A stretch of DNA of 64,000 bases, from the NCBI GenBank assembly GCA_963701965.1, contig OY969695.1, positions 2,656,001-2,720,000 on the forward strand. Reading direction: 5' to 3'. A program made the translations under genes and the position numbers. The notes beneath the pieces are model-generated. The model had not been told where the DNA came from. It did no database searches and saw only the letters and a list, made by a program, of their open reading frames with translations. Shown piece by piece: positions 8,596 through 39,950 of this stretch. Origin of the DNA: an uncultured Gemmatimonadales bacterium. Its GTDB lineage: Bacteria > Gemmatimonadota > Gemmatimonadetes > Gemmatimonadales > Gemmatimonadaceae. How positions within the stretch are numbered: the stretch's first letter is position 1; the number at the start of each line of letters is the position of its first letter.

Positions 8596-8608
8596 GGGGA
8601 TGAGCCGA

Positions 8609-10021
8609 TCACGGACGAAGAGCGGCGATCAGCGCGCGGGCCTTGTCGAGTGTTTCCTGATACTCGGCCGCCGGGTCGGAATCGGCGACGATACCACCGC
8701 CCACGGAAAAATACACGCGGTTCCCGAGGGCGAGGTAGGTACGGATGACAATGCTGGTATCGAGGGGACCACTGGCGCTGAGATAACCGATCGAGCCGCA
8801 GTAGACCCCGCGGCGCGAGGGCTCGAGCTCGGCGATGATCTCCATGGCCCGGACCTTGGGCGCACCCGTGATCGAGCCGCCGGGGAAGCTGGCGCGCAAG
8901 AGATCTATCCCGTCGATCTCCGGCGGAAGCTCCCCGACGACGGTTGATACGAGATGATGCACCGTGGGATAGTGCTCCAACAAGAACAGCTCGGGGACGC
9001 GCACGGTGCCGGGCGCGCAGACGCGGGACAAGTCGTTTCGCAGCAAGTCCACGATCATGAGATTTTCGGCGCGGTCCTTCTCGCTCTCGGTGAGCGCGAG
9101 GCCGAGGGCCGCATCGTGCTCCGGGCCGATCCCTCGGGGGCTCGTGCCCTTGATCGGACGTGTCTCGACCGCGCGGTCGGCCGAGACCCGCAGAAAGCGT
9201 TCCGGGGACGCACTGATCACCGCGAAGTCGCCCAAGTCCAAGTACGCCGCGAACGGCGCCGGGTTGATGGTGCGCAGGCGGCGATACAGCGCCCAGGGCG
9301 ATTCGTCGAGGGGCGCCTCCAAGCGCTGGGAGAGGTTGGCCTGGAAGATGTCGCCGGCCACGATGTACTCCCGTACGCGCTCCACCGCGGCGAGATACGC
9401 GTCGCGCGTGAAGCTCGATCGCAGCGCGATGTCCCCGGCCGCCTCCGGCGGCACGGGATACGACGGCGCGCTCTCTCGGGCGCTCTCGCGGCCGCGTACG
9501 TCTGATGACGCGAGCGGCGCGGTCGGTGGCGGATCGCTGCGGCTCGTGCCGCGCGCGATGGCGCGCGCATCGCGCAGCCGCGCCGCGGCGCGCGCCGCGT
9601 CGCCAATGACAATGATCCAGGCCCGTCCCAACTGGTGGTCCCAGGCGATGACCCAGTCATAGATGCCGAGCACGACATCGGGGATCGCCAGATCATCGTA
9701 TCGCGGAACGGGAAGCCGCTCCAGAACGGCGCCGTAGTCATATCCAATGTATCCCGCGGCACCGCCTTGAAACGGCGGCAGGTCCGGGATGACGTCAGCG
9801 CGATACGGCAGCAGCGCGTCTCGTGCCGCGGCCAGGGCGTCGGTCCGCGAGCCCTTGCCCTGTATCACCGTGACCGGATCGGCGACGACGAACGAGTAGC
9901 GGCCCAGTCGTTGCGGATCGCTGGCGCTGTCGAGGAGAATGCGGTACGGCAGCCCCGCGGTGCGCTCGAACGTCGCCAGCACGTCGGGCGCGGGAATGAT
10001 TTCCTCCACGAGCGGCCGCAC
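8609..10021 (-). CDS. pabB: Aminodeoxychorismate synthase component I
   Basis: PFQGGAAGYIGYD, SPERFL, TRPIKGT, AENLMIVDLLRND and FPGGSITGAPK motifs. Confidence 0.9.
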   Translation of the reverse strand: MRPLVEEIIPAPDVLATFERTAGLPYRILLDSASDPQRLGRYSFVVADPVTVIQGKGSRTDALAAARDALLPYRADVIPDLPPFQGGAAGYIGYDYGAVLERLPVPRYDDLAIPDVVLGIYDWVIAWDHQLGRAWIIVIGDAARAAARLRDARAIARGTSRSDPPPTAPLASSDVRGRESARESAPSYPVPPEAAGDIALRSSFTRDAYLAAVERVREYIVAGDIFQANLSQRLEAPLDESPWALYRRLRTINPAPFAAYLDLGDFAVISASPERFLRVSADRAVETRPIKGTSPRGIGPEHDAALGLALTESEKDRAENLMIVDLLRNDLSRVCAPGTVRVPELFLLEHYPTVHHLVSTVVGELPPEIDGIDLLRASFPGGSITGAPKVRAMEIIAELEPSRRGVYCGSIGYLSASGPLDTSIVIRTYLALGNRVYFSVGGGIVADSDPAAEYQETLDKARALIAALRP

Positions 10022-10022
10022 G

Positions 10023-11499
10023 TCAGCCGGCGCGCTCCCGTCGCGCGGTGACGCGCAAATGTTCGCCGATCGGGTCGTCCGGCGGGGTGAGATACCCCCA
10101 CGCCAGCGATCCCTCTTGCCGATACGTCTTGCCGAGCTGGATGGCGATCTTGGCCTTGGCCAACTCTTTCCCCAGGTAGAACGCGTGCGTCGGCTCTTCG
10201 ACGCCCAGCTGCGCGAAGATCGCCTGGATGTCGGTGCCGCGGACGAAGCGCTCGCTGTTGAGCACCGTGATCGTATCCCGATCCGTGAAGATGCGGAAGT
10301 TCGCATCCGTGATGGACGCTTGCAGGGTCCGCAGCTCCGCCTCGGAATAGGCGAGGAGATCCGGGTCTTTGACGGTCACCAGCCGATCATCAATGTGCTT
10401 CGGCAGCGATTGCTTGGAGACCGCGTAGTGCATGAGACGGCGCGCGACGTCGAGCTCGCGGACGGCGCCCCGGGCCCAGGGAATGACTTCCGTGGTCAAC
10501 ACGCCGCGGACGCCGGTCTCCTGGGCGATGGCCATGAGGATCGCGTTGACGCCGGTGGTATCGGCCGCGGTGAGCTCGGTGAGATTGCCGATGCCCATGA
10601 ACAAGGGCGCGTCGGGAAACCGGCGATGGGCCTCGGCGAACCGTTCGATCGACGCCGTGAACCCGAACCCGATCGGTTCGATGACGGGGTCGATGAGATA
10701 GGGCACGCCCCACTGTTCGAGCGCCGCGATCGTCGGGTCGATGGTCGCGAGACCGGCGCCGAGGTCGGGAATGGCTACCACGCGGGCCCCCGATCCCGCG
10801 ATCTCGCGGGCGACATCGCGATTCGCGCCGTGGATGCTGAGCACGAGGGTAGCCCCGGCGCCGACCGCCGTCAGGATTTCGTCGCGCTCGAAGCTGTCGA
10901 TACTGAGGCGGAGTCCGAGACCGACCAGCTCGCGCACGAGGTCGGCGAGCTCGGGAAACGGGCGGCCGGGTGTCATCCCGAGATCGATGATGTCGGCGCC
11001 GCTGTCGCGGAAGTACTGCTGCCTGGCGCACCACCTCGGCCCGCGACAGCCGCGGCACGTTGTTGATCTCGGCGACGATTTCGATGTCGTAGGCGCCGTA
11101 CTCGCGCGCGACGTCCGCCCGGCCAAACCACGTAGGGATTTCGCGGAGGTCCTTTGGCCCTTTCACAACGGCGACGCCGACCTTGTCGGTGATGACGGCC
11201 GGATCGCCTTCGCAGAGGCCCGGGATCATCACCAGGTCGGTGCCCGCGGGCACTTCCAGAAACCGCGCGATCCACGGCGTGGTCATGAGGGCCGCGACGG
11301 TGATCTTGAGCGGCACGACCGAGTAGGCGAACCCGGGCGCCATCGCCGTGAGCGTCTCGCGCAGCGCGGGCTCGGCCAGCCGCCCGGTCACGAATGCGAC
11401 TGACCGGGCGTTGCTAACGATCCCGGCGACGCTTCGCGTCGCGAGATCCAGTGTCGGTTGGACCGATCCCGGCTGCGCCGGGATCCTAGCCGCGCTTAT
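10023..11499 (-). CDS. Orf20-like dihydropteroate-synthase-related protein (DUF6513/pterin-binding/DUF4346); +1 frameshift at ~11020; start read as ATA, probably ATG
   Basis: FVTGRLAEPAL, ITVAALMT, GPKDLREIP, GADIIDLG, MGIGNLTELT and HAFYLGKEL across ORFs 10390..11775 and 10023..11126. Confidence 0.82.
11419..11485 (-). repeat. ~66-bp double-hairpin element, copy 1 (in frame near the 5' end of the Orf20-like gene)
   Basis: Reverse complement matches 20681-20746 at 62 of 66 nt; hairpins gatcccggc-GCA-gccgggatc and gcgacgc-GAA-gcgtcgc. Confidence 0.9.
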
Positions 11500-11858
11500 C
11501 GCCGCTCCCCGCTCTGCACCCACTTCGTCGGCGTGCCCTCGAGCGCGCCGCCGGGTGTCGGGCGCCACAAGGCGACGTCCTCGATCTTCCGTGCGAGATC
11601 GAGATCTTTGCCAGTGATGCCGCCGGCCGAGTGCGTCTGCAATTTCACGCCGACGCGGGCCCAGGTGACGCTCAGGTCCGGGTGATGGTTTGCGGCCTCG
11701 GCGAGATACCCGATGGTGTTCACCAGCATCAGCGTCGTGCGCCAACCGTCGGTCTTGTAGTACCGCCGTACCCATCCGTCCTCGTAATACCAGCCGGGGA
11801 GGGCCGCGAGTTGACTCTCGATCTCGGCGTCCGTGAATATCGGCTCTTTCTTGGTCAC
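11496..11858 (-). CDS. Pterin-4-alpha-carbinolamine dehydratase family protein
   Basis: AEAANHHPDL and THSAGGITGKD motifs. Confidence 0.9.
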   Translation of the reverse strand: MTKKEPIFTDAEIESQLAALPGWYYEDGWVRRYYKTDGWRTTLMLVNTIGYLAEAANHHPDLSVTWARVGVKLQTHSAGGITGKDLDLARKIEDVALWRPTPGGALEGTPTKWVQSGERR

Positions 11859-12617
11859 ATCACGACTCCTCCATTAATGAGCATCGTTTGACCGGTGATG
11901 AACGACGCGGCGGGTGACGCGAGGTAGACAGCGGCGCCGGCAACGTCGTCCGGCGTGCCCCATCGCCCGAGCGGGGTGGCGTCGCTTACCTGTCGCCGGC
12001 GCCCGGCGTCGAGGCCGGCAGCGAACGCGGTGTCGATCCACCCTGGCGCGAGGATGTTCACCCGGACCTTTGGGGCAACCGTGCGGGCGAGCGACTTACT
12101 GAAGCTCAGCACGCCGCCCTTGACGGCGGCGAACATCTCCGGGTTCCGGCCCTCCATCCCCGCTAAGGCGTGGTCCCAGCTCATGTTGATGATGACCCCG
12201 CCCGCGGGCTGCGCGGCCATCAGATCGGCGGCGGTCCACGATGCGAGCATCGTTCCGCGGCAGGTCGACCGTCAGGAGTCGGTCGAGCTTCTCGTGGGTC
12301 GGGAGCGCCGCGCCGGCGCCGGTCAGAATGTCGGCGCCCGCGTTGTTGACCCAGACGTCGATCCGGCCGGCGGCCGCTCGGGCCTGCCTGGCCAACGCCG
12401 TGATCGACGGCTGGTCCGCGAGGTCCAGCGGGAATACGTAGGCGCGGCGGCCTTTGGCGCGAATGGCCGCGGCGACGGACTCGGCGTCCGTGGCATCCCG
12501 CCAGTAAGTCGCCACCACATCGGCGCCCGCGTTCGCGCAGGCGAGCGCGATGGCGCGGCCGATCCCGCTGGATGCGCCGGTGACGAGCACCACGTGACCG
12601 ATCAGGCTCTCTCCCAC
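11855..12617 (-). CDS. SDR-family oxidoreductase with atypical FxxxK motif (+1 frameshift at ~12258)
   Basis: TGASSGIG, NNAG, EMFAAVKGG, VNILAPGWI and TPLGRWG across two ORFs. Confidence 0.85.
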
Positions 12618-12649
12618 ACCGGGCCTCTCAGGTGTTAGCGTAAGCTAGC

Positions 12650-13564
12650 ATGCGACTCCTGGTCAGTGTGGCGGACGCGGCCGACGCGTACGCGGCAGTC
12701 GACGGCGGCGCCGACATCGTCGACGCCAAAGACCCGACGCGCGGCGCCCTCGGCCCCGTCTCGCCGGCGGCGCTTCGCGCCATCATCGGCGCCGTTGCCG
12801 GCCGGCGGCCAGTCAGTGCCGCGATCGGCGAGATCACGGACGGCATGCTCGGCGCACGCGCCTTCGGCGCGGCGCCGCACTGTAAGCAAGCCGGCATCGC
12901 ATCGCCGCCACTCGTCCAAGGCGACTTCGCGTTGTCCCCAGTCGTGCACGGCGATTTCGCATCGTCGCAATTCGTCCCGGGCGACATCGCGCTGCCGCCA
13001 TTCGCCCAAGGTGAATTCGCATCGCCGCCACTCGTCCGAGGCGACATCGCGCTGCCGCCATTCTCCCACGGCGACTTCGCATCGCTGCAATTCGTGAAAG
13101 TCGCCTTCGCGCCTGGGATGTCGGCGACGGCGGCCGCGAAGCGGGCCGCCGAGATGATCGACGTGGGGACCGTGCGCTGCGTGTTGGCCGCCTACGCCGA
13201 TGCCGGGCTGCATCGCGATGACGTCGTAGAGATCGCCGCGCAGATCGGCGCGTCGGGCGTATTGCTCGACACGTTCGATAAGACCGGTCCGGGTCTCTTC
13301 GACGTGGTCGACGACGACACGTTGGCGCGCTGGGTCCGGGGCGCGCAACGGGCGGGGTTGACCGTCGCGTTGGCGGGGCGTCTCTCGGCCGCTGAGCTGC
13401 CGCGGGTGGCGGCGCTCGGTGCGGACATTGTCGGCGTGCGCGGGGCCGCGTGTGTGGGCGGCCGCGAGGCCCAAGTCTCGCCGGCCGCTGTCCGCGCGCT
13501 CCGCGCTACGATCCAGCGAGAAACCGCTCCCATGCCGGATTGCCGCGCAGCGGCCAGTACGTGA
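12650..13564 (+). CDS. mfnB: (5-formylfuran-3-yl)methyl phosphate synthase-like protein (DUF556) with internal repeat expansion
   Basis: MRLLVSV, GADIVDAKDPxxGALG, FVKV, LLDTFDK, ALAGRL and DIVGVRGAAC motifs. Confidence 0.87.
   Translation: MRLLVSVADAADAYAAVDGGADIVDAKDPTRGALGPVSPAALRAIIGAVAGRRPVSAAIGEITDGMLGARAFGAAPHCKQAGIASPPLVQGDFALSPVVHGDFASSQFVPGDIALPPFAQGEFASPPLVRGDIALPPFSHGDFASLQFVKVAFAPGMSATAAAKRAAEMIDVGTVRCVLAAYADAGLHRDDVVEIAAQIGASGVLLDTFDKTGPGLFDVVDDDTLARWVRGAQRAGLTVALAGRLSAAELPRVAALGADIVGVRGAACVGGREAQVSPAAVRALRATIQRETAPMPDCRAAAST
12899..13096 (+). repeat. In-frame 30-bp tandem repeat (6 units plus a partial) inside mfnB
   Basis: Encodes ASPPLVQGDF ALSPVVHGDF ASSQFVPGDI ALPPFAQGEF ASPPLVRGDI ALPPFSHGDF ASLQFV. 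Confidence 0.92.
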
Positions 13565-16166
13565 TGTCGGTCCGCGCGGACCACAGCGAGAATCCCGTCT
13601 TGAGCGTCATCAGCCGGCGCAGGTGCGCGATGGCGGAATCGGCCATGCCAATGGTCCCGAACACGGCCGCAACAGTCTGCTCGAAGTTCGCCCGCTGCGG
13701 ATCGTCAGCGCTGAGCGAATCCGCGTAGCGCTCGAGCGAGATCACCTGTTGCATGGCCTTCGGGCGGTCGCCGCGAAATGAGTAGCCCCATCCAAGCAGC
13801 TGATAGCGGGCGAAGATGAGCGGGCCGGTCAAGCGCGGCGACAGCCCGATGCGCACGACCGAATCCCCGTACGCGCGCGCCGCCTGCTGATCGCCGAGCG
13901 CGAGCACCGCCAGTCGCTTCGCGATATAGAACGTGCTGGAATCCAGAAACTGCCCCGCGTGCGCGTCCTCGAGCGACATGTGCTGCAGTTTTTCCCAGCC
14001 CGTGCGGCCAAAGTTCGTGTACTGCGTCGCCAGCGTCACGGTCATCACCACGCCGCGCGCTTCGGCCGTATCCATGGTCCGGCGTCCCGCCGCCGTGTCT
14101 CCGCGCCCGTCGATCTCGGCGTTGATGCGCCAGCTGTACCCGATCGACGACGTCGGCGCCAACGCGATATACCGATCCGCGTACCGTTCCGTCTCGGCGT
14201 AGCGGTGATAGTTGTACGTCTGACCGATGACCCGCTGCAGGGTGACGAGTGCCCGCGGATCCAGCTTCACGGCCTTGGCCAGGTTCGCGAACCCCTCCGT
14301 CGTCTGGCCTTGGACGATCTGCGCGCTGCCGAGACGCGAGAGGAGATTCGCATCGTTGGGCCGCAACGCCTGGGCCCGCGTCAACTCCTCCATCGCTCGC
14401 GCCTTGTCCTTCAAGAAGAAGTCCAGGTAGAAGGCGCGGACCGCGTGTCCGTCGGCGAGACCCGGCTTGAGCGCAAACGCCGAATCCAGGGAGCGCTTCG
14501 CGGACGCGAGGCGACTCGTGTCGGAGATATCCAGAATGGCCCAACTGAATTGCGCATCGGCGAGCTTGGCGAACGCCAACGCGAACGATGGGTCGAGATG
14601 TGTGGCCTCCCCGAACGCGCCCATGGCCTGGCGAATGTTCTCGGGGGAGAGCTCGTTAATGGTCTGGTCGAACGCCTCTCCGCGCATGTACGCATCGTAC
14701 GCCCGCGGGTTGGCCGTCGGGCGATCCACGAGCGCCTTCTGCTCGTCGCCGTTGAGCGTGACGTTGAGCGCGTCGGCGACCTCGGTCGCCACCTTCGTCT
14801 GCACATCGAACACATCGGCGGGCGAGACCTGGTACGGTCCGCCCGCGGGCTTCGTGGTCAGATCGTTCGTGCTCACCAGCGATGGCGAGATCTGCACCAG
14901 CGGCGCGCCCTTCTCGTTCGACGCCCAGCGCACGGTGCCTTCGAGCACGTACTGGACCCCGAGCTCGCGGCCGATCTGCCGCACCGATTTCGTCGTGTTC
15001 CGGTACTGTCCGGCGCTCCGCCGATCGATGACGCCGAGGTTGTGCAGGCTCGCCAGGCGATTCGTGATGGCCTCGGTAAGCCCGTCCGCGAAATACGCGT
15101 CCGACGCCGGTCCCTGATTCTCGAACGGCAGGACCGCGAGCATGGTCTGCCCCTTGGGCGTATCGAACCGCTGGCGATGCAACAGGGTCCAGGCGCCCGC
15201 GGCCACCGCCAGAAACGCCGCCGCGACCGCGGCGACGCGAGGATGCGAGGGCCGCCGGCTCCCCCGGCCGGCGGGAACCGCCGCGTTGGTCGGCGTCCAC
15301 GTGCCGCTCGATGTGGGGATCGAGTCCAGCACCCGGATGATCTCGTCCGCCGATTGCGGGCGGTCGGCCGGCCGCTTCTCCAGGCACCGCATGACCACCG
15401 CGCCCAGCGCCTGCGGGATCGCCGGGCGGCGCCGGGTGACGGATTCCGGCGTCTCTATCGCATGCGCGGCCAACATCGCCTGGGCCGGTCGCCCGGCGAA
15501 CGGCGGATCGCCTGTCAACAGCTCGTACGACATCGCGCCGAACGCGTACAGGTCGGCCCGGTGGTCCGTCGCCGGATCGGCCGCGGCCTGCTCCGGCGCC
15601 ATGTACGCCGGGGTGCCGAGCGCGACGCCGAACTGCGTGAGTTGCCCCTGGCCGCTCATCGTCGCCGCGGCATTGAGCGCCTTCGCCACCCCGAAATCGG
15701 TGACCATTGCCGACCCGCCGGAGATCAGCACGTTGTCCGGCTTGATGTCGCGGTGGACCACGCCGTTGGCGTGCGCATAGCTCAGTGCCGACGCTACTTC
15801 GCGGAGCACCCGCACGGCCTCGCCGACGGGCAGTTCGCCGCCCTTGGCCAGCCGATTTCGCAGGGACTCGCCGTCGATGAACGGCATCGTGAAGTACGGG
15901 AGACCGCCCGACTCGCCCGCCGCGAGCAACGGCACGATGTGCGGATGCTGGAGCCGCGCCGCTACCTGGATCTCGCGGCGGAACCGTTCCACATTGAGGC
16001 CCTCGGCCAGCTCCGGGGACATCACCTTGATCACGACCGTGCGCGCCAGCACCGTCTCTTCGGCCACGAAGACGCGCGACATGCCCCCACCGCCGAGCTC
16101 TCGCTCGAGGCGATAGGCGGTTCCCAGGGTCGATTGGAGGCGGGCGCGGAGCGCGTCGTCGGTCAC
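13506..16166 (-). CDS. Hanks-type Ser/Thr protein kinase with TM segment, TolB-N-like and TPR regions
   Basis: LGGGGMSRVF, HRDIKPDN, DFG and GTPAYMAPEQ motifs; LAVLPFEN domain; helical repeats. Confidence 0.93.
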   Translation of the reverse strand: MTDDALRARLQSTLGTAYRLERELGGGGMSRVFVAEETVLARTVVIKVMSPELAEGLNVERFRREIQVAARLQHPHIVPLLAAGESGGLPYFTMPFIDGESLRNRLAKGGELPVGEAVRVLREVASALSYAHANGVVHRDIKPDNVLISGGSAMVTDFGVAKALNAAATMSGQGQLTQFGVALGTPAYMAPEQAAADPATDHRADLYAFGAMSYELLTGDPPFAGRPAQAMLAAHAIETPESVTRRRPAIPQALGAVVMRCLEKRPADRPQSADEIIRVLDSIPTSSGTWTPTNAAVPAGRGSRRPSHPRVAAVAAAFLAVAAGAWTLLHRQRFDTPKGQTMLAVLPFENQGPASDAYFADGLTEAITNRLASLHNLGVIDRRSAGQYRNTTKSVRQIGRELGVQYVLEGTVRWASNEKGAPLVQISPSLVSTNDLTTKPAGGPYQVSPADVFDVQTKVATEVADALNVTLNGDEQKALVDRPTANPRAYDAYMRGEAFDQTINELSPENIRQAMGAFGEATHLDPSFALAFAKLADAQFSWAILDISDTSRLASAKRSLDSAFALKPGLADGHAVRAFYLDFFLKDKARAMEELTRAQALRPNDANLLSRLGSAQIVQGQTTEGFANLAKAVKLDPRALVTLQRVIGQTYNYHRYAETERYADRYIALAPTSSIGYSWRINAEIDGRGDTAAGRRTMDTAEARGVVMTVTLATQYTNFGRTGWEKLQHMSLEDAHAGQFLDSSTFYIAKRLAVLALGDQQAARAYGDSVVRIGLSPRLTGPLIFARYQLLGWGYSFRGDRPKAMQQVISLERYADSLSADDPQRANFEQTVAAVFGTIGMADSAIAHLRRLMTLKTGFSLWSARTDITYWPLRGNPAWERFLAGS

Positions 16167-16726
16167 GGTACCATAAGATTATGCCAGACCTCGTCGGAGG
16201 CGAGCGCGATGTTGAGCTCGCCGGCGCGGCCGGCGGCCAACACGCGGGCGTCCAGGGCCTTGGGTCGGGCGCACGGGAAGTAGCGATCCGTCGCCCCAGG
16301 TACCGCCGCCGGCTTGATCAAAAGGAGCCGCCGGGCGCCGACGGCGCCGGCGATCCAGGCGGCGATGCTGTCGCTGGTGACATCCCAGGAGTGGGGCAGC
16401 GGATCGGCGGCCCGGAGCCACCGGTACGGGGCGAGGATGCCGAGCCCCCCGAATGGGGGTCGATCCGCCACGACCGCCTGTGGGAGGCGCGACGCCAGCA
16501 CCCAGGCGTATTGGTCCATGGCGAGAATCGCCGCCCAATGGGCGGCGTCCGCGCCCAGCCCCAGTGTCCTATCGACCGCACGCACGGCGTCGGCAAACGG
16601 ACCACCGCCCGGGACGATCAACGTTCGGCCATTGGCGGGAATGCTGGCGAGCTCGGCCACAACCGCATCAAAAAGCGGGCGATCCGCCAACAGAGCGCCG
16701 CCTACTTTCACGACAGTGTCGATCAC
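16163..16726 (-). CDS. Amino-acid/uridylate kinase family protein, MfnE-like (Orf21)
   Basis: VVKVGG, IVPGGGPFAD, AHWAAILAMDQY and LPHSWDVTSDSIAAW motifs. Confidence 0.85.
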   Translation of the reverse strand: MIDTVVKVGGALLADRPLFDAVVAELASIPANGRTLIVPGGGPFADAVRAVDRTLGLGADAAHWAAILAMDQYAWVLASRLPQAVVADRPPFGGLGILAPYRWLRAADPLPHSWDVTSDSIAAWIAGAVGARRLLLIKPAAVPGATDRYFPCARPKALDARVLAAGRAGELNIALASDEVWHNLMVP

Positions 16727-17751
16727 GCCCGGGCCAGGAGGAGCGCGACCGCCGCGGCCGGCGCACATTCCGCGGCGGCGACGCCCAGCGTGTCGGAGAG
16801 CGCGATCGGCTGCAGCCCTGCTTGGCGGCAGGCCGCCTCGGCGATCGCCGCGCCGATGCCGGCAACGACGCCCGTGGACAGCGAGGGGTGGCGCTCCCGG
16901 ACCCGGGCGATCGCGCCCGCGGTGCGCGCCACCTGCGCGTCGCCGACGTACGTGGCGATGGCATTGATCGCCTTTTCGTCCAGCATTTCCCGGTCGGCGC
17001 ACACGACGCGGGCGATCCGCTCGGCCGCGAACGTACGCGCCGCGGGGCGGCCATCGGGCGTTGGCGCCGTGTACACCGTGGAACTGATCGTTCCGCGCCA
17101 CACGTGCACATCGCCCACGAGCGCGAAGCCCTCCGCGCTCACGCCGGCCCAACCAGCGCCCAGCGGCACCGCCCGCACGATCGCTTCGACCGGTGTCCGC
17201 ACCGCGCCCAGGTAGACCAGCTCACCCGATGCCAGACGTTCGGGATCGGTATGTCCCTCGGCGACGACCCGCCCGTCGACGATCGGGATGATGTCGGTCG
17301 TCGTCGAGCCGATATCGACCAGGACCGCATCCGGGACGTGCGCGGCGACCATCTGCGCCATGGCGACCCAGTTGGCGGCCGCCACGGCGAGCGGCTCGCG
17401 CCGGGCCGACTCGACCGTGAGCCAGCGGCCGTCGGTCGTGAATACCGCGATGCGGGCGCGCGGGAACGCGGCGGCGACGCCATTGAGCACAAACGCGACC
17501 CCTTCGCGCTTCGTCCGAAAGGCCTGTGACAGCTCGGCGGTCATGGTCACCGCGTGGGCCTCTTCGCCGATCCCCCCGATCTCGGCGGCGAGCGTGGTCA
17601 AGAGCCCGGGCAACGCGCCGAGGTCGCGCTGGATCTCGTAGGGCCGCGACCGCACGGCGACCACGCCGGGCCGCCCCGCGGCGTCCACGCCAACGCCGGC
17701 GACCTTGGTGTTGACGCCACCGATGTCCCAGCCGATTACCGTACAGGTCAT
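16723..17751 (-). CDS. Hydantoinase/oxoprolinase-family protein, MfnF-like (Orf9)
   Basis: GWDIGGVNTK, AVTMTAEL, AAANW, DIGSTTTDIIP and GELVYLGAVRTP motifs. Confidence 0.88.
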   Translation of the reverse strand: MTCTVIGWDIGGVNTKVAGVGVDAAGRPGVVAVRSRPYEIQRDLGALPGLLTTLAAEIGGIGEEAHAVTMTAELSQAFRTKREGVAFVLNGVAAAFPRARIAVFTTDGRWLTVESARREPLAVAAANWVAMAQMVAAHVPDAVLVDIGSTTTDIIPIVDGRVVAEGHTDPERLASGELVYLGAVRTPVEAIVRAVPLGAGWAGVSAEGFALVGDVHVWRGTISSTVYTAPTPDGRPAARTFAAERIARVVCADREMLDEKAINAIATYVGDAQVARTAGAIARVRERHPSLSTGVVAGIGAAIAEAACRQAGLQPIALSDTLGVAAAECAPAAAVALLLARA

Positions 17752-18436
17752 GCGGCTCATTGGGGTGATCGACTTGGCCGGCGGGCAAGCGGTCCACGCG
17801 CGCGGAGGGCAGCGGGCCGCCTACGCGCCCGTTCGATCCGCGCTTTTACCTTCCGGCGGCGGCGCCGATCCCGTTGCGCTGGCGCGCGCCTATCTCGATG
17901 TGCCGGTCGCGGAAATATACGTGGCCGATCTCGATGCGATCGCCGGCGACGAGCCGGCTTGGGATACGGTCGAGGCCCTGTCGCGGCTCGGCGTGCCGGT
18001 CTGGATCGATGCGGGCCAGCGCTCGGTCGAGGTCGCGGCGGGAGCGCCCACGGTGCGGGCGGTGATCGGGCTCGAGACGTTGCGCTCATGGCACGAGCTG
18101 GCAGCGCCAGGCGCTGCCTTCAGCCTCGATCTCCGACGTGGCCGCCCACTCGTGGGCGACGAGCCGCCCGCGGCCCTGGCGCGGCGCGCAGTGGCCGCCG
18201 GCGCTTCCGCCATCGTCCTGCTCGACCTCGCCCGCGTCGGGTCGTCAACCGGGCTCGACTGGGTAACGGTCCAGGAAGTCCGTACGTCAACGATGGGGGT
18301 GGAACTCATCGTCGGCGGAGGCGTACGGGACTCACAGGACGTGGATCGGCTGGCGGATCTGGGCTGCAACGGAGTCCTCGTCGCAACTGCCCTCCATGAG
18401 CGTCGCCTTGGGCACGGAGTTTTCCTGAGGACTTGA
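17750..18436 (+). CDS. HisA/HisF-related TIM-barrel protein (Orf17-like)
   Basis: IGVIDLAGGQAVHA, YVADLDAI, LLDLARVG, VGGGVR and LVATALH motifs. Confidence 0.85.
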   Translation: MRLIGVIDLAGGQAVHARGGQRAAYAPVRSALLPSGGGADPVALARAYLDVPVAEIYVADLDAIAGDEPAWDTVEALSRLGVPVWIDAGQRSVEVAAGAPTVRAVIGLETLRSWHELAAPGAAFSLDLRRGRPLVGDEPPAALARRAVAAGASAIVLLDLARVGSSTGLDWVTVQEVRTSTMGVELIVGGGVRDSQDVDRLADLGCNGVLVATALHERRLGHGVFLRT

Positions 18437-18439
18437 GGG

Positions 18440-19084
18440 ATGAGAAAAGCGACGGCGGTATTCGTGGCGGCGATAGCGGCCGGGGTCGCCACTGGCGGCG
18501 CCCTACCCGCGCAAGCGGTGCGGCTGGGAGTGGTCATGGATGGACCACGGCAACAGCTCATCGAAGCGTGGAACGATGCGAACCCGCGGCAGGTCGAGCG
18601 CGCGTACTGCGTCGTCGATTGGTCGTTTGGCGTCTACCATGTTTCGCGCACGCCGCCGATTCAGGATGACACGGTGTTCCGCGTGTTCGCCATCAAACCG
18701 ACGGACGTGTCCAACGCGACGCCCGCGTCCGCGGACTTCGAGTGCCCCACCGGGAGCCCGGAGTTGCACGTGCACACGCCGACGACGTGTATGGGCGACG
18801 ATGTCGACACGTGCCGGCTGGGCGGCCTCAACGCATATAGCTGTCAGCCGAGCCGCAATGATTACGAGAAGCTCGTGCGCCGGCACGACACGTTCGGTGT
18901 GATCCAGTGCGACCGGCGGTCATTTCGCTTCTACTATCCGAGCGACTACGCGACGCCCGACGAGACGTGGCTGTCGAGCGCCGCGGGCAAGCCGCCGGAG
19001 GTCAAACAACGGCCCGGGAATCTGACGCCGGCCATGAAGCCTGGATATGAGCGTCAGCCCCATCAGGGCGACCAACAGCCCTAG
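18440..19084 (+). CDS. Secreted Cys-rich protein with a degenerate JAB/MPN+ (JAMM) motif
   Basis: Signal peptide ending AQA; PRQVERAYC (Glu), ELHVHTP (HxH) and PSRND (SxxD) in JAMM order, with a Cys-rich insert. Confidence 0.6.
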   Translation: MRKATAVFVAAIAAGVATGGALPAQAVRLGVVMDGPRQQLIEAWNDANPRQVERAYCVVDWSFGVYHVSRTPPIQDDTVFRVFAIKPTDVSNATPASADFECPTGSPELHVHTPTTCMGDDVDTCRLGGLNAYSCQPSRNDYEKLVRRHDTFGVIQCDRRSFRFYYPSDYATPDETWLSSAAGKPPEVKQRPGNLTPAMKPGYERQPHQGDQQP

Positions 19085-19267
19085 TGTCTGGTCGTATCCT
19101 TCGGCATTCTGTTGGTGCGCCATGCCCGTGTCGGTCGACGCCGCTGGCGGCGGCTGCGTCGCTGCCGCGCCCGTATCGGCCATTGCGCCACTGCTCGAGT
19201 TCGATGTTCGCCCCCCGCTGCAGGCGGTGAGCAAGGCGGCGACTGCTATCGCTGTCACGTATCTCAT
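19081..19267 (-). CDS. Small lipoprotein (~61 aa; +1 frameshift at ~19108)
   Basis: Lipobox LTAC. Removing one A from CAGAATG gives ...QMPKDTTRH* ending at 19081. Confidence 0.65.
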
Positions 19268-19344
19268 GGATTGTGCTCCCCGAAGTTGGATAGTCCCCGA
19301 AACCACGGTGTTTGAGCAAGTACCGGACCCATTAGGTTGCAGAC

Positions 19345-19786
19345 ATGGATCGTCGCGCATTCCTTTACGCTGGTACGAGCGCAGCTGTAGGACTGCTGTT
19401 CCGGCAGCCTGACGACGATGAGCCGACGGAGGCCGTGAAACGCGTATTGGCTACGCGCTTCGGGTCTCGTCCGCTGACCAAGGGGCATGTGCAGTTCGAC
19501 ATTCCCGAAAACGCGCCCGATGGCCGCGCGGTGCCGGTATTCATCGAGACGGATTTACCGATGACGCCGGAGCGTTACGTCAAGGCGTTCCATCTCCTTG
19601 TCGACCACAACCCGGACATTTATCTCGCCGGGTTCACGTTCTCTCCGGCCCTCGGCGCGGCGTCGATCGACACGCGCATCAGAGATGCGGCGCACGTCCT
19701 ATGTGCGCGCCATCGCCGAGATGTCGAGTGGCGAGTTGTACGTGTCGGCGAAGAAAGTGTTCGTTTTGCTCAACGGGTGCGGCTGA
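19345..19786 (+). CDS. SoxY-like sulfur/cargo carrier with Tat signal and C-terminal NGCG (+1 frameshift at ~19682)
   Basis: MDRRAFL; PENAPDGRAVPV; LVDHNP; TRIxMRRTS; ends KVFVLLNGCG (canonical SoxY ends VxxGGCGG). Confidence 0.85.
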
Positions 19787-20124
19787 TGGCGACCGGCGAT
19801 GCGCGCGTGATCGTTCCCGCCGGTATCAAGGCCGGCGATGTCATCTACGTGCGGGCCATCATCGAACATCCCATGGACACGGGATTCTTTCGCACCCCCG
19901 ACGGCCAGCCGATCCCGGCGTATTTCATACAGGATGTCACCGTCCGATACGGCGAGGACGAGATCGCGCACTACGAGTGGACGTCGGGGGTGAGCCGGGA
20001 TCCATCGGTGACGTTCGCGTTGAAGGCGGTGCGTGAAGCGCCGATCGCCGTGACGTGGAAGGACAACAAGGGTGGTGTGTACCACCAGTCGGCCGACGTG
20101 AGATTCGCGCCGCAGGCGCAATGA
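19786..20124 (+). CDS. SoxZ-like protein
   Basis: VRAIIEHPMDTG, IPAYFI, GVSRDP and WKDNKG motifs; TGATG overlap with the soxY-like gene. Confidence 0.88.
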   Translation: MATGDARVIVPAGIKAGDVIYVRAIIEHPMDTGFFRTPDGQPIPAYFIQDVTVRYGEDEIAHYEWTSGVSRDPSVTFALKAVREAPIAVTWKDNKGGVYHQSADVRFAPQAQ

Positions 20125-21939
20125 TCGCGCGGGCGCTGCTCGGCGCCCTGGTTGCTCTCCCGCCGCTGTTGCCGTTACCCCGACCAACGGCGTATCCCAG
20201 CGTCAGATTGGCCGAAGGGGTGTACGCGGTGCCCGGCGACACGGGACGCGGCTCCGAGGGACGGGCCAACGCGGGCTTCGTCGTCACGGACAGCGGCGTG
20301 GTGGTCATCGACGCCGAGTCCAGTCCCTATCAAGCCAAGCGCCTGCTCGCCAGCATCCGGCGTGAGACGCCGGCGCCCGTGCGGTGGCTGATTCTCACGC
20401 ACCACCATCCCGACCATACGTTCGGCGCGATCGTGTTCAAGCGGATGGGCGCTCAGGTGATCGCGCATCCCGATCGACATTTCCTCGCCGCCGAGGAAGG
20501 CGACGATGCGCTGGTCGCCAACTGGGATGGCGTCGTCGGTGTCCAGCAACTGGTGGGGTTCGCGTTCGCCGACACGCCGGGTTTGGCGATCACGCACGAC
20601 ACCACGCTCACGCTCGGCCGTCGCCGCATCGAGATCCTGCATCCGCCCGACGCGCACACGGCGGGGGATCTCGCTGTCTTGATCCCGGCGCAGCCGGGAT
20701 CGGGCCAACCGACCTCGGATCTCGCGACGCGAAGCGTCGCCGGGATTCCCGACGTCCGCGTGCTCTTCGCCGGGGACATCGTTGTCGAGGATGGGGTGAG
20801 CATGGTGGTCGATGGCACGGCGTCGGGGACGCTGCGGGCGCTCGACCGGTTCGAGGCGTTGCATCCCGCCGTCGTCGTGCCGGGGCACGGGCGGATCGAG
20901 GCCGATCCGGCATCCCAGATCGCGCGCACGCGGACGTACCTCGACTCGGCGCGGACCGCGCTCAAGGCCGCGCTCGATCGCGGGATGCCGCTCAGCCGTG
21001 TGCTGGCGCGGATGCCGCCGCCGGATTCCGGACGCCCGGTGTCGCTCGCGTCGCGCCATCAGCGGAACGCGGTGCGCATCTACGCCGAGCTCGAGAAGGA
21101 ATTGATAGACCCGCCCCATTCAGGTCTGATCTCGACCGACTCATTAGCGAGTCTGATCAAGAACGGCCAGGCGACGATCGTCAATGTGCGTACGGACGTC
21201 TCGTTGTATCTGGAGTCGCACATTCCTGGCGCCGTATATCTGCACGCCGAGTCGCTGCGATCGTTCGACCACGGGGTGCCGAATCTGCTCCTCCCACCGG
21301 AGAGCTACGCGACGCTCTTCACGCGCATCGGCATCCGCCCCGACCGCCCCGTCATCGTGTACAGCGCGGGAGACACGCGCAACATCGACGCGACGTATCT
21401 GGCGTGGATCCTGGATGGTTTCGGGGTGCCGGTGTCGGTGCTCGACGGTGGTTTTCAGAAGTGGGATCTGGACCAGAAGCCCACGGGGCGCACGTACCCG
21501 GCACCGGTGCCAGGCACGTTTCCCGTGCGGGCGTTTGAGCCGGCCCGGGCCACGCTCGATGATGTGAAGCACGTCGTCGAGGCGCATCCCGCGGACGCGG
21601 TGCTCGTCGACGCGCGGTCGCCAGAGCAATATGCCGGGCAAGCGGGCGCCCAGAATGCGGCGCGGACACATTCCGGGTGCGGTCAATCACCCGTGGACGA
21701 CCGATCTGACGACGGGGTTGTCGCACGTCTTCAAGGATCGCGATGCCATCCGCACCAGCTATGTGACGCAGGGTATCACGTCGGACAAAGCCATCATCGC
21801 GTATTGCAACGGCGGACTCGAGTCCAGCCACATCTACTTCGTGCTGCATATGGTGCTCGGCTATCCGCGCGTCCGGGTGTACGACGGTTCGTACACCGAG
21901 TGGGCGGCGCACACCGAGCTGCCGGTGGTGGGCCCTTAG
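20121..21939 (+). CDS. Secreted MBL-fold metallohydrolase fused to a tandem-domain rhodanese/sulfurtransferase (+1 frameshift at ~21653)
   Basis: NAGFVV, THHHPDH, AHTAGD, LFAGD and PGHG; then HIPGAVYL, GHIPGAVN, YCNGGLES (active-site Cys) and YDGSYTEW. Confidence 0.87.
20681..20746 (+). repeat. ~66-bp double-hairpin element, copy 2 (in-frame insertion in the MBL domain)
   Basis: Encodes IPAQPGSGQPTSDLATRSVAGI between DLAVL and PDVRVLFAGD; 62 of 66 nt identical to copy 1. Confidence 0.9.
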
Positions 21940-22478
21940 CGCACGACGATCAGCGCCGGGTGGCGGATCCCGCCATCGGCGAGGCGCACCGCGGCGTCGA
22001 TCGAGTCGGCGTCCCAGGCCGCGAGCACGACGCGGTCCGTGCCGGCGGCGAACGTGGCCAGGTCAGTCGAGGACAGCACCGGCTCTTTGAGCGCGTGCCC
22101 GACCGAGTCGGCGCGGTAGGGGTGCGTGTGCCACGTGCCAATGAGCGCGGACACGTGTGTGCAGGTACCGGTGACCGCGAACTGGAGCTGGTGGAGCCCC
22201 AAAGCCGGCGTCCAGTCCGTGATGTAGACGGTGTCGGCGCTGACGTGGCCGATGAGACAGCCCAAGTATTCGCGCTGGGTCGGTTTCCCGGTGCCCAGCA
22301 TCTGGGTCAGCGTGTTGACGTCGGACAACTCGTTCCAATGCGTGTTGTTGCGGAGCCAGATGGCGTTGATCGAGTCGGCGACCGGACGCGCGATCACCAC
22401 GACGGCGGGTGGGTGGGGTGCGGGCGACAGGGCTACCCCGGCACACAGTAAGACTCGAAGCAACGACGGGCGCAGCAT
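21936..22478 (-). CDS. Secreted JAB/MPN+ domain metalloprotease-like protein (180 aa)
   Basis: Hydrophobic N-terminus; QREYLGCLIG, IGTWHTHP and LSSTD give the JAMM pattern E...HxH...SxxD. Confidence 0.78.
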   Translation of the reverse strand: MLRPSLLRVLLCAGVALSPAPHPPAVVVIARPVADSINAIWLRNNTHWNELSDVNTLTQMLGTGKPTQREYLGCLIGHVSADTVYITDWTPALGLHQLQFAVTGTCTHVSALIGTWHTHPYRADSVGHALKEPVLSSTDLATFAAGTDRVVLAAWDADSIDAAVRLADGGIRHPALIVVR

Positions 22479-22490
22479 AGGTTTTAGCAC

Positions 22491-23393
22491 ATGGTACCGA
22501 GACATACGACCCTGGTGGAATCGCCTCGGCTGTCCGACCGCCTTGGCGTGGCGGTGACGCTGGCGTCCGAGACCTTTCAGTATACCGGAAGCTTCAAATT
22601 TCGCGCGGCGAGCTATGTGGTGGGTCATGTGCCGAACCCCGCGGTAATCACCGCGTCGTCCGGCAACTTTGGCCAGGCCATGGCCTACGCCTGCCAGCAG
22701 GCGGGCAAGCGGTGCACCGTGGTCATGCCGGCGAATTCGGTGCGGGTGAAAGTCGACGCGGTCCGCGATTTCGGCGCGACGGTCGATCTCGTGGACACGA
22801 CGAAGATCACGCGGGCCGCACGGGTCGCCGAGCTGAGCGCGGCGCAGCCCGACGCGTACGTGGCCAGTGCCTACGATGATCCCTTGGTGATCGCCGGCAA
22901 CGCCACGCTCGGGCGCGAGCTGGCCGCGCTGCCGCAGCGGTTCGACGCGATCATCGCGCCCGTGGGCGGCGGCGGTCTGTGTTCGGGGATCATTCAGGGG
23001 TTGCGGGCGGCGGGCGATACGACGCCGGTCATCGGCGCCGAGCCGTTGTTGGCGAACAATGCGGCGCAGTCGCTGCGGACGGGGCGGATCGTTGCCAGCG
23101 ACCACGAGGTGCAAACGATCGCCGACGGCGCGCGCACCATGAGTCTCGGCAAGCATAACTGGGCCATCATTCAGAGCGGCGTCGAGACGATCGTCGAAGT
23201 CTCGGAGGAGCAGATTCGCGAGGGGGTACGGCTCTTGTTCGCGTTGGCCAATCTCAAGGCCGAACCCACCGGCGCGTTGACGCTCGGCGCCGTGCTGGCC
23301 GATCGGAACCGATTGCGGGATCGACGCATTTGCTGCATCGTGAGTGGCGGCAACGCCGATCCACACCTGTATCGAGAAATTCTGGGCGACTAG
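22491..23393 (+). CDS. PLP-dependent threonine/serine dehydratase or racemase family protein
   Basis: ETFQYTGSFKFR, SSGNFGQ, PVGGGGL, EPTGA and IVSGGN motifs. Confidence 0.9.
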   Translation: MVPRHTTLVESPRLSDRLGVAVTLASETFQYTGSFKFRAASYVVGHVPNPAVITASSGNFGQAMAYACQQAGKRCTVVMPANSVRVKVDAVRDFGATVDLVDTTKITRAARVAELSAAQPDAYVASAYDDPLVIAGNATLGRELAALPQRFDAIIAPVGGGGLCSGIIQGLRAAGDTTPVIGAEPLLANNAAQSLRTGRIVASDHEVQTIADGARTMSLGKHNWAIIQSGVETIVEVSEEQIREGVRLLFALANLKAEPTGALTLGAVLADRNRLRDRRICCIVSGGNADPHLYREILGD

Positions 23394-23395
23394 CG

Positions 23396-23683
23396 GGCAA
23401 TGCCCAGATCTTGCTACGGCCCACTGGGCGTAGCAAGATCCTGGTCGGTTGAACAGATCTGGGCTTTGCCCAGATCTTGCTACGGCCCACTGGCGTAGCA
23501 AGATCCTGGTCGGTTGAACTGATCTGGGCTTTGCCCAGATCTTGCTACGGCCCACTGGCGTAGCAAGATCCTAGTCGGTTGAACTGATCTGGGCTTTGCC
23601 CAGATCTTGCTACGGCCCACTGGCGTAGCAAGATCCTGGTCGGTTGAACTGATCTGGGCTTTGCCCAGATCTACCTACGGCCC
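23396..23683. repeat. Tandem array of a 65-bp GATC-rich double-hairpin unit (~4.4 copies)
   Basis: Unit gatctgggc-ttt-gcccagatcttgctacg-gcccactgg-cgtagcaagatc-ctggtcggttgaact starts at 23456, 23521, 23586 and 23651 (partial), plus a leading variant. Confidence 0.95.
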
Positions 23684-23856
23684 GATAGTTGCAACCTATG
23701 GTCGCGGTATTAAATGAGGGCACCCCCGATGACCATCACTCGCTCGACCGATCGCCCGTCAGCGCCAAAGAACCCCCGTCCCGCAAGCCCGCCTCCAAAT
23801 GACGAGCCCCGGGTGATCGTTCGTGGACGCGTGTCCCATGTCGAACACGAAATCGA

Positions 23857-24405
23857 TCAGCCGGAGCCGATGCCCGTGCGCAAGTCCGGGGACCGCCCCA
23901 CGGCCTCGCGGTAGACGGCCGACTGGCCGAAGTTCTCCTCTACCTCGATCTCGATCACCCCAAGTCGACCCGCCGCGGAGCCGAGCTCCGTTTTGACTCG
24001 CCCGGCCAAGTACTGGGCCAACATCTCGACGGTGGTGTTCGGGATCGGGAGGAGAACGCAGTCTTCGCGGGGAAACACGTAACGGGGGCGGTGCTCGTAG
24101 GCCACCGTTATCGTTTCCCCCTGCTCGCCGATCACGAGCTTCGGGTTCTCCAAGGGCAGGAGCACCCAATGGTCGATCTCATCGCACAGCCGCTTCATCA
24201 GCCGCTTGAGGTCGACAAAGTTGAACACATACCAACTTTCGGGATCGAGTGGCCCCTCCAGCGCGACGGCGACACGGTAGTTGTGGCCGTGCAGGTTCTC
24301 GCAGCGGTGTCCGGCGAACGTGATGAAGTGCGCGGACGAGAACACGAGATAGTCTTTCGTGACCTGCACCCGGAAGAGCTTTTCGGCGTGATCAGTGGTC
24401 GGCAT
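23857..24405 (-). CDS. 6-pyruvoyl-tetrahydropterin synthase/QueD-family protein
   Basis: FSSAHFI, CENLHGHNY, NTTVE and VEEN motifs. Confidence 0.88.
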   Translation of the reverse strand: MPTTDHAEKLFRVQVTKDYLVFSSAHFITFAGHRCENLHGHNYRVAVALEGPLDPESWYVFNFVDLKRLMKRLCDEIDHWVLLPLENPKLVIGEQGETITVAYEHRPRYVFPREDCVLLPIPNTTVEMLAQYLAGRVKTELGSAAGRLGVIEIEVEENFGQSAVYREAVGRSPDLRTGIGSG

Positions 24406-25285
24406 GCCAGAGTCCCGAGAGAAGACCAACAAAGAGCGAAGCCGCGGTGAGATCCGCGGTCGTGCCGGGATTCAACCGGCGCTCGCGCAGCGTGTGGTCA
24501 AATGTGGAAAGCGTCACGCGCCCGGCGAGCACGGCCGCCGCGCCGCGGCTGACAGCCGCGGCCGTGGGGGCGCCATGGCGACGGGCAATATGTGTATCGG
24601 GCGCGGCAGCGAGAAGGTGTAGGTAGGTGTCCACCGTCGCGGGCTCCCAACCCGCGCCCGTCGCCAGCGCCGCTCGCAACGTCGGAAACCCGAGCTCGAA
24701 CGTCGTCTCGAAATCCGTCGCGTACTCGCGGGCGACGCCATCCCGCTCGGCAGCCAGGCGCATCGTCTCGCGCAAGGCGATCCGAGGCTCGGCCGCAACG
24801 TCCTCGGCGCTGACGGCGCCGAGCCCGCCCGGTCGCGCGAGCCGGATCGCCGCATAGACCTCGCGCGCGTCCTCCACTGTCGTCGCCGCTAACATCTCGC
24901 CCAACGCTTCCCGAAGCCTCTTCGGGGCGCGAGATCCCTTGTCGATAACAGGGGTCGCGGCTTCGCCAGGATGCATGCGCTCGGTTTCACGGGCCCCGGC
25001 CTGGGCCGCGCGCGCAGCGCGCGCCAGCGGGACGATGAGCAGGACGATGCCGAGGTTGGTGTTCGAGCGCGTCCAGCGCGCTGTTGCCTGTACGGCCGCG
25101 TGTATGGTGGCGCCGAGCGGGCGGTCACCAGCGAGCGCGGGGCCGAGCGCGGCAGCGCTCGCCAAAAAGTCCTCGTAGCGCGCATCATGAAAATGTCGAT
25201 CGGGCGACACGTTGCCGGGTTTGGGCGCGCTCGCTTCCAGGAGGCAGGCGAGCTGGGCGGCCGCGACAATGAAGTCATCCGTCAT
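24392..25285 (-). CDS. CitG-family triphosphoribosyl-dephospho-CoA synthase-like protein (Orf7)
   Basis: EASAPKPGNV, NTNLGIVLL, PDTHIARRHG and NPGTTADL motifs. Confidence 0.87.
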   Translation of the reverse strand: MTDDFIVAAAQLACLLEASAPKPGNVSPDRHFHDARYEDFLASAAALGPALAGDRPLGATIHAAVQATARWTRSNTNLGIVLLIVPLARAARAAQAGARETERMHPGEAATPVIDKGSRAPKRLREALGEMLAATTVEDAREVYAAIRLARPGGLGAVSAEDVAAEPRIALRETMRLAAERDGVAREYATDFETTFELGFPTLRAALATGAGWEPATVDTYLHLLAAAPDTHIARRHGAPTAAAVSRGAAAVLAGRVTLSTFDHTLRERRLNPGTTADLTAASLFVGLLSGLWHADH

Positions 25286-39842: not shown

Positions 39843-39916
39843 AGAGCTCCGCGCAGCGGAGCTCTGTCCAACTGAGTTGTTCCCGCAGGTGCGGCTCTTA
39901 TGCCCCCTGCGGGAAC
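39843..39916 (+). repeat. Diverged double-hairpin element, intergenic
   Basis: agagctccgc-GCA-gcggagctct + gtccaactga + gttcccgcagg-N16-cctgcgggaac; same layout and linker as copies 1 and 2. Confidence 0.6.
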
Positions 39917-39950
39917 CCTCAGGGGGGCGCCCGGGTATGTCCCGCCTATC

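Follow-up and report, generated by a model that had tools for sequence, protein, structure and literature searches.

PATEs, which are non-autonomous derivatives of the IS200/IS605 single-strand transposons, and the mycobacterial MIRU-VNTRs, dispersed 40–100-nt units that form variable tandem arrays and often lie at stop/start junctions, are among the described systems closest to the repeat analysed here. Others are the RPEs, the REPs and IS608. RPEs are about 100–150 bp long and many of them lie in frame (PMC10969869, PMC3767692). REPs occur as singles and in clusters, often at stop codons or between convergent genes, and some are intragenic and code for 20–30 amino acids (PMC3733652, PMC8266576). 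The CGTC REPs have no known transposase, and how in-frame palindromic repeats without a transposase move is open (PMC3733652). IS608 finds its target through base pairing, and altered transposon DNA can direct it to a new one (PMC5934647); its guides are tetranucleotides 5' of the palindromes which engage in linear and cross pairing (PMC8266576).

The present repeat was recognised in a window of 64,000 nt (positions 2,656,001 to 2,720,000 of contig OY969695.1) from an uncultured Gemmatimonadales bacterium whose assembly is a single contig of 5.12 Mb with 67% GC. The repeat is RPE-like in behaviour and, by comparison with the published descriptions, is not an RPE. Like RPE-1 to RPE-3 it is short, palindromic, multi-copy and without its own transposase, and it lies in frame in unrelated housekeeping genes, where it encodes a recurrent peptide; these insertions are in pre-existing ORFs and absent from the orthologues compared. 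Its length and host range, however, differ from those of RPEs. Across the family the units measure 60–72 nt (unit 63) as against 100–150 bp, and the host is free-living, GC-rich and of another phylum than Rickettsia and Wolbachia. In addition, the repeat occurs in either orientation and in several frames, builds tandem arrays and carries a target-matched arm, a feature that the extracts of PMC10969869 and PMC3767692 do not mention for RPEs.

As with the GTAG and CGTC REPs and the BIMEs, hairpin repeats are found singly and clustered, at stops, between convergent genes and in some cases within genes. Unlike the GTAG and CGTC REPs, the repeat lacks the terminal GTAG or CGTC tag, has an internal 10-nt core between two hairpins of the same direction, and is not accompanied by a RAYT in any of six genus genomes. 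With IS608 and other IS200/IS605 elements it would share a hairpin-bearing single-strand substrate in which the 5' foot of a hairpin supplies bases that pair with the strand-transfer site, so that changing the pairing bases would change the target. In contrast to IS608, arm and target form a plain antiparallel duplex of ∼8 bp that spans both sides of the insertion point; short end repeats (3–8 nt being common) are present, whereas IS200/IS605 elements make no target duplication, no TnpA was found, and the left flank is loosely constrained where IS200/IS605 elements have a fixed tetra- or pentanucleotide. MIRU-VNTRs resemble it in having dispersed units in variable arrays, but they differ from it in its strong two-hairpin structure, frequent in-domain insertion and arm–target pairing. 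In the open-access literature we found neither this repeat family described nor, for REP-like repeats, an arm complementary to the target, and the target-matched arm is in that sense new here.

Architecture and copy number of the repeat

A sequence-only reading of the window had described a 66-nt element present twice. The identity it gave holds, with 62 of 66 bases shared between 20681–20746 (+) and 11420–11485 (−), whereas its start for the second copy, 11419, was off by one. The peptide it reported for both copies, IPAQPGS(G/V)QPT(S/L)DLATRSVAGI, matches the translation, and both of its hairpins, with GCGCAGC and GCGAAGC tops, are present; DNA folding gave z scores of −3.1 and −3.6 relative to shuffled sequences. 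Mini-hairpins of the GNA type are in general stable in single-stranded DNA. Because the commonest array period is 63, the unit is taken as 63 nt long and the extra 3 nt as a repeated GAT; its end repeat, GAT(C), is short. The genome search that the reading had proposed gave 45 matches at E<1e-3 with a single sequence and 90 at E≤0.01 with an iterated profile, far above chance (the reversed genome gave 0 matches at E≤0.01 and one at E≤1). These ∼90 copies group into 56 loci, 14 of which are arrays of 2–8 units with periods of 60–69.

Each copy consists of hairpin 1, one variable base, the unpaired core GTYCAACCGA, a spacer of ∼2–4 nt and hairpin 2. Hairpin 1 has 9 bp and a loop that is mostly GCA, GAA or GGA, and hairpin 2 has two stems, outer and inner, with a bulge between them. 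Among 68 loci there are 26 different 5' arms of hairpin 1, with just 37 non-Watson–Crick pairs in 612, and the stems are thus maintained by compensatory changes while the sequence drifts; the spacer columns are the most variable of the unpaired ones. Subfamily A, to which both copies of the earlier reading belong, is 63 nt long with GATC ends, and its consensus (17 copies) is free of stops in all six frames, even when placed head to tail. Subfamily B (∼67–72 nt) has a different hairpin 2 with a CTA end, and a three-hairpin form also occurs in relatives. Features of the copies in the window, which holds three loci beyond the two first recognised (23409–23672, 24909–24972 and 39844–39920), are collected in Table 1.

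The bases preceding hairpin 1 are variable host DNA. End repeats of 3–8 nt are common at the junctions and vary in length, and an unconstrained search for target duplications returned noise. At one locus in Lhr (L046, contig 2478529–2478667) the last 26 bases of a 69-nt variant resemble the left flank of the host at 24 of 26 positions, which indicates that extended homology was involved when this copy inserted. Several familiar structures were considered and set aside. The repeat is not a classical MITE, as its ends are two separate hairpins, the end repeats vary in length and there is no fixed-length target duplication. It lacks the matching second half of an attC site and the fixed guide 5' of hairpin 1 of an IS605 circle junction, the identical spacers speak against a CRISPR repeat, and the maintained frames against a spliced intron. 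A search of window positions 20400–24100 against Rfam gave no match to the repeat beyond one chance match (E=0.98).

Table 1. Coordinates of the repeat copies and of their parts within the window
Feature	Position	Strand	Evidence or context
63-nt unit of subfamily A, in frame in MBL-fold gene (21 codons)	20681..20743	+	absent from 14/14 homologues
Hairpin 1, 9-bp stem, GCA loop	20681..20701	+	folding; arm variation across 68 loci
Conserved unpaired core (family GTYCAACCGA), one change in the MBL copy	20703..20712	+	copy alignment
Variable 4-nt spacer	20713..20716	+	most variable unpaired columns
Outer 5' arm of hairpin 2, putative guide	20717..20724	+	pairs with 20741–20748, of which 20744–20748 are host
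Inner hairpin 2 (6 bp, GAA loop), bulge, 3' end of unit	20725..20743	+	folding
Host bases right of insertion, GAT repeated, start of Ile-Pro codons	20744..20748	+	
MBL-fold domain of MBL-rhodanese fusion, adjoins soxYZ-like genes	20121..21110	+	host gene
Second copy, subfamily A, at N-terminus of DUF6513/pterin-binding gene	11420..11485	−	11 nt past pterin-4a dehydratase stop
Tandem array of four 65-nt family units and a partial unit, between convergent genes	23409..23672	−	
Decayed older copy, in frame in CitG-family gene (24392–25285)	24909..24972	−	5/5 orthologues without it; loop variable
Copy with subfamily-B hairpin 1, between sigma-70 gene and next gene	39844..39920	+	

Copies inside genes

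The expectation that about 21 residues had been added to a normally short loop of the MBL protein was borne out, the insert being exactly 21 amino acids relative to all 14 homologues. Removing 63 nt in one way restores a Trp which all 14 have at that spot, and the His and Asp motifs flanking the insert are intact. In an alignment-based AlphaFold prediction (mean pLDDT 85, pTM 0.86; a single-sequence prediction with pLDDT 38 was not used) the insert, residues 170–190, has a pLDDT below 50 and lies between two strands, and it models as a floppy surface loop. The rhodanese part downstream is frameshifted in this assembly.

That frameshift, others like it and a foreign-looking first 300 kb might be taken to mean that the in-frame copies are artefacts of long-read assembly. 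We consider this so improbable as to be largely refuted, given that copies differ from the consensus at 2–14 of 63 bases, with compensatory changes, and that the family is found again, in-frame copies included, in other genomes. The left junction of the MBL copy is also spanned, with one difference, by a 185-nt contig of a public run; the run may be the source sample, so this is not independent support.

The second copy had been implied to interrupt a domain, but it is N-terminal to it. All five relatives compared have the DUF6513/pterin-binding gene without the element and with an in-frame ATA, following a purine-rich stretch, that overlaps the upstream stop. No ATG, GTG or TTG lies between the copy and the start of the conserved DUF6513 domain, and its peptide would be an N-terminal extension if ATA is the start, the gene start being uncertain. 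The apparent ATA start (11497–11499, −) overlaps the upstream stop in the host genome as well as in 5/5 relatives. ATA was rejected as a general start codon, there being 33 such overlaps genome-wide against 705 of ATGA/GTGA; the 165 CTGA overlaps hint at CTG starts. In the CitG orthologue of one relative (L142), an unrelated 12-nt microsatellite has expanded in the same loop that holds the decayed copy.

Genome-wide, gene calling placed 16 of the 56 loci within coding frames (14 sense, two antisense). Two coding loci were missed by the caller, namely four units in ImuB, close to a 1-nt frameshift for which an assembly error is the probable cause, and seven in an ABC ATPase, so that the total is at least 18, and four further loci lie at gene N-termini. 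The units of the ABC ATPase (L049, contig 2607086–2607529) are antisense and add 147 codons in frame just before Walker A. The peptide is absent from the orthologues of pyruvate kinase (5/5; 493 against 472–478 amino acids), HisH (5/5 by split match, four of them read as DNA), ImuB (4/4), the PaaJ-like protein (3/3), the TMEM260-like protein (4/4) and CitG (5/5). For AlkA the only homologues compared were distant (44–46% identical), which makes this a weak test. The inserts of pyruvate kinase and HisH comprise 21 and 42 residues, respectively, and neither gene has a second copy in the genome at E<1e-8. In relatives, in-frame copies occur in genes that are empty in the host genome, for example those for MazG and a phospholipase D-like protein.

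The sense orientation and common frame of the first two copies do not extend to a rule, as two sense frames and all three antisense frames are in use across the genome. Array periods are multiples of three in 6/6 coding arrays versus 2/7 non-coding arrays (p=0.02, with one array that has a partial inverted unit history classed as non-coding by position), and in-gene copies keep the frame. It is from such open frames that translation of the repeat peptides is predicted. Subfamily B copies lie in intergenic DNA or at the ends of genes, and many loci touch stop codons. Copies are present in several DNA repair genes (L043, L046 and L051: ImuB, Lhr, AlkA/Ada, Ogt), echoing the bias towards repair genes reported for intragenic REPs (PMC3733652).

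Pairing between hairpin 2 and the insertion site

The earlier reading did not have the pairing between hairpin 2 and the target, which is the new feature of this analysis. With R0 denoting the base that follows the unit, positions R−3 to about R+4 are paired with the outer 5' arm of hairpin 2. In 17 indel-free A loci with a fixed register (the A and B sets were chosen after the folds had been seen), positions R0 to R+4 comprise 74 Watson–Crick pairs, nine G–T pairs and two mismatches out of 85, and all three arm variants at host-facing positions are Watson–Crick to the host base. Of the 11 imperfect pairs, nine are G–T on the drawn strand (p=0.001 against an expectation of one third), a bias which suggests that it is the drawn strand that engages in the pairing. 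For 23 CTA-ended loci, 19 from the host genome and four from relatives, the register was anchored on pairs inside the element. Here, 58 of 69 positions from R+1 to R+3 pair, compared with a mean of 26.4 and a maximum of 45 in 20,000 shuffles, and the 23 loci carry 19 different arms. The same host bases match the start of the copy's own hairpin 1 at only 35 of 69 positions. A permutation with fitted register was set aside, because the register slipped at several loci and inflated the significance; it had also left out 23 of the 77 loci, namely three-hairpin forms, those with partial extra units, and decayed or repeated sites.

That the paired bases are host DNA is seen at several loci. They comprise Trp codons conserved in the orthologues of ImuB, the PaaJ-like protein and the TMEM260-like protein, the rbfA start codon together with a 7-nt stretch that is present at an empty site of the host genome, a GTG start that follows an ABC gene and, with less certainty, the final codons of a beta-CASP nuclease. 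In the ImuB array the arm of all four units fits the host flank at 10/10 positions, and the internal junction less well. The pairing of arm and host is real, and it may be either a cause or a result of insertion.

The left flank shows preferences of its own. Base −2 is T at 14/17 B-type loci versus 4/17 A loci (p=0.002), and TAG occupies −2 to 0 at 10/17 versus 1/17, the B set of these counts being regex-chosen and holding three non-B loci; TAG makes up 0.3% of genome positions. Survival at stop codons adds to the TAG bias upstream of B copies. The preference at −2 is not attributable to copying, as copying would run from the right flank. One rule, arm–target pairing, would account for the left preference, the locus-specific match on the right and the tolerance of G–T.

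We lean, short of regarding it as probable, towards a two-hairpin repeat without a gene of its own that moves as a folded single strand and finds where to insert through base pairing between arm and target, for which IS608 is a loose precedent. The main alternative, a serious one that we nonetheless think somewhat doubtful, is insertion through a few bases of homology between the joined ends of a copy and GATC- or CTAG-type sites, after which template switching during replication (quasi-palindrome correction) or hairpin repair rewrites the arm as the complement of the new right flank, so that the match is a result of insertion. The direct repeats of 3–8 nt at many junctions fit this, as does a left-flank preference that follows the 3' end of each subfamily, and perfection of hairpins by template switching has precedent (PMC7202029, PMC8794818). 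Rewriting also explains better than a guide of fixed geometry the arms that are long (from ∼5 up to 12 nt) and unique, nearly every B copy having its own. Three further observations go against the guide: in the array at 994488 the fit of the arm is poorer at the terminal flank than at the internal junction, two of 23 B loci pair only after a shift, and one compensatory change at the PaaJ-like locus is wholly internal to the element, so that stems are homogenised by some process anyway. Against rewriting, hairpin 1, taken outward into its flank as a control, has no matching extension and pairs at 24 of 204 positions, below the 32 of shuffled flanks, though copies lie in both orientations. Moreover, A copies retain nine G–T pairs and two mismatches uncorrected, and copying would not prefer G–T to other mismatches.

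It is also conceivable, if quite improbable, that the repeats are kept for a host function, as mRNA hairpins or protein-binding sites, and that selection on RNA structure builds the pairing of arm and flank. Such a role would suit the 14 of 56 loci between convergent genes and the many at stop codons, as reported for REPs (PMC3733652). Against it, sites are mostly not common to the species of the genus, the pairing holds inside coding regions too, and the G–T pairs keep to the strand of the element even where a coding copy is antisense (3400017, a single case).

Enzyme search

The sequence-only reading had taken the element for a small non-autonomous mobile repeat that adds peptide segments in frame, and this agrees with the ∼90 copies, the orthologues without the peptide and the lack of an enzyme gene in or beside the copies examined. 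The HUH/RAYT partner it suggested was found in none of six genus genomes. These genomes, the host's included, are 67–95% complete, and searches with working controls gave neither Y1_Tnp nor RAYT (PF01797, NF047646) in any of them. The profile for IS91-type Y2 transposases likewise matched 0/6, and it also matched nothing in control genomes. Pfam matches for 99 of 107 called neighbours in the host genome (of the rest, five window genes were scanned separately) and for 37 of 59 in relatives revealed ordinary genes, with no transposase and no recurrent partner, and 24 unannotated neighbours inspected by eye form no repeated family. The only GIY-YIG matches in the host genome are two long UvrC-like frames, one of them read. 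Of 113 long repeats in that genome, the 12 inspected are DDE-type IS or gene duplicates, and the ends of the inspected DDE elements are unrelated to the repeat. Near two relaxase-like genes there is only a core-like word of 7–8 nt, ∼2 kb away. IS110 is present in 3/6 genus genomes.

Matches to RT and IS110 in the host genome lie at 79 and 238–254 kb, among foreign-looking genes and far from the copies. The two group II intron RTs raise the prospect, an improbable one, that the element moves as RNA, its arm acting like an exon-binding or internal guide sequence, and is copied in by such an RT. The tolerance of G–T(U), the pairing across the junction and the sense orientation of 14 of the 16 called coding copies would be in keeping with this. 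On the other hand, the RT is found in 1/6 genus genomes and is confined to the compositionally foreign first 300 kb, no Rfam family matches the repeat within window positions 20400–24100, the intergenic copies flanked by co-directional genes divide into 11 sense and 14 antisense, and with its frames kept the unit does not look spliced out. Positions 1–300000 of the contig depart from the rest in tetranucleotide composition and hold proteobacterial-looking genes (by eye), with the RT, IS110 and an integrase fragment among them; this is possibly a chimeric assembly join.

Distribution

A 20-nt pattern matched 50 times in the host genome and 1–14 times in each of the five other genus genomes. Elsewhere in the family it matched 11 of 245 genomes, once or twice each, and the backwards control matched five. 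The repeat family is thus restricted to the genus, with matches at chance level in the rest of the family. With one genome per species, 18 of 23 matches were labelled Gemmatimonadaceae or Gemmatimonadales; on inspection, the five from other taxa and two of the 18 were without paired hairpins. The pattern matched no viral contigs and four loci in metagenomes. Insertion sites are mostly not common to the species of the genus, and for two further intergenic sites there was no syntenic empty site. Half of the loci (28/56) fall within ∼0.8 Mb (2.2–2.8 Mb and 3.3–3.5 Mb of the contig), which suggests local hopping; inspection by eye showed no preference for one strand with respect to replication.

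Proposed route of insertion

In the favoured reading, guidance of a folded single strand by its arm, an enzyme acting in trans would recognise hairpin 1 and the core. About 8 nt of the arm would then select the site by their complementarity to target bases on both sides of the insertion point (3 nt to the left and 4–5 nt to the right, with G–T allowed), subfamily A landing at RGATYY-like sites and B at CTAG/TAG sites, often stop codons; the pattern itself is observed. Some copies have grown into head-to-tail arrays of 2–8 units, for which slippage at the short end repeat is the probable cause. Purifying selection would finally filter the copies, and the surviving peptides would be tolerated floppy loops and not new functional modules. 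In its strongest form, which we regard as unlikely as a whole, the proposal describes a DNA-guided 63-base element that has its own guide of 8–12 nt in each copy, uses an enzyme outside the known HUH families, and, being open in six frames, can land in essential genes and add peptide loops there.

The conserved core marks the likely enzyme site, and the covariation of the arm with its target at dozens of loci offers a handle on how such repeats move. If the arm is a guide, the repeat would be a very small programmable inserter; a guided element of this kind would constitute a minimal natural system of programmable insertion and a testable model for the spread of RPE- and CGTC-type repeats without a known transposase. 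If the arm is instead rewritten after insertion, it would be a record of a hairpin-specific process of DNA copying. Either way, a free-living bacterium carries inserts of 21 and 42 residues in its only genes for pyruvate kinase and HisH, and one of 147 in the frame of an ABC ATPase, and these bear on the origin of loops in proteins.

Neighbouring genes

Positions 8086–25285 of the window hold a cluster that encodes PabA/PabB, DUF6513-pterin-binding, pterin dehydratase, amino-acid kinase, hydantoinase-like, HisA-like, PTPS and CitG proteins. The cluster recalls methanopterin/methanofuran biosynthesis, and it is possibly a methylotrophy island. A duplicated gene that overlaps the window start resembles, by eye, a PQQ alcohol dehydrogenase. 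Within the cluster, the ORF at 12650–13564 (−), which has no Pfam match, contains an unrelated 30-nt tandem repeat (12868–13107) of ∼8 units, each adding 10 amino acids in frame, and its ends are reminiscent of a methanofuran-pathway synthase.
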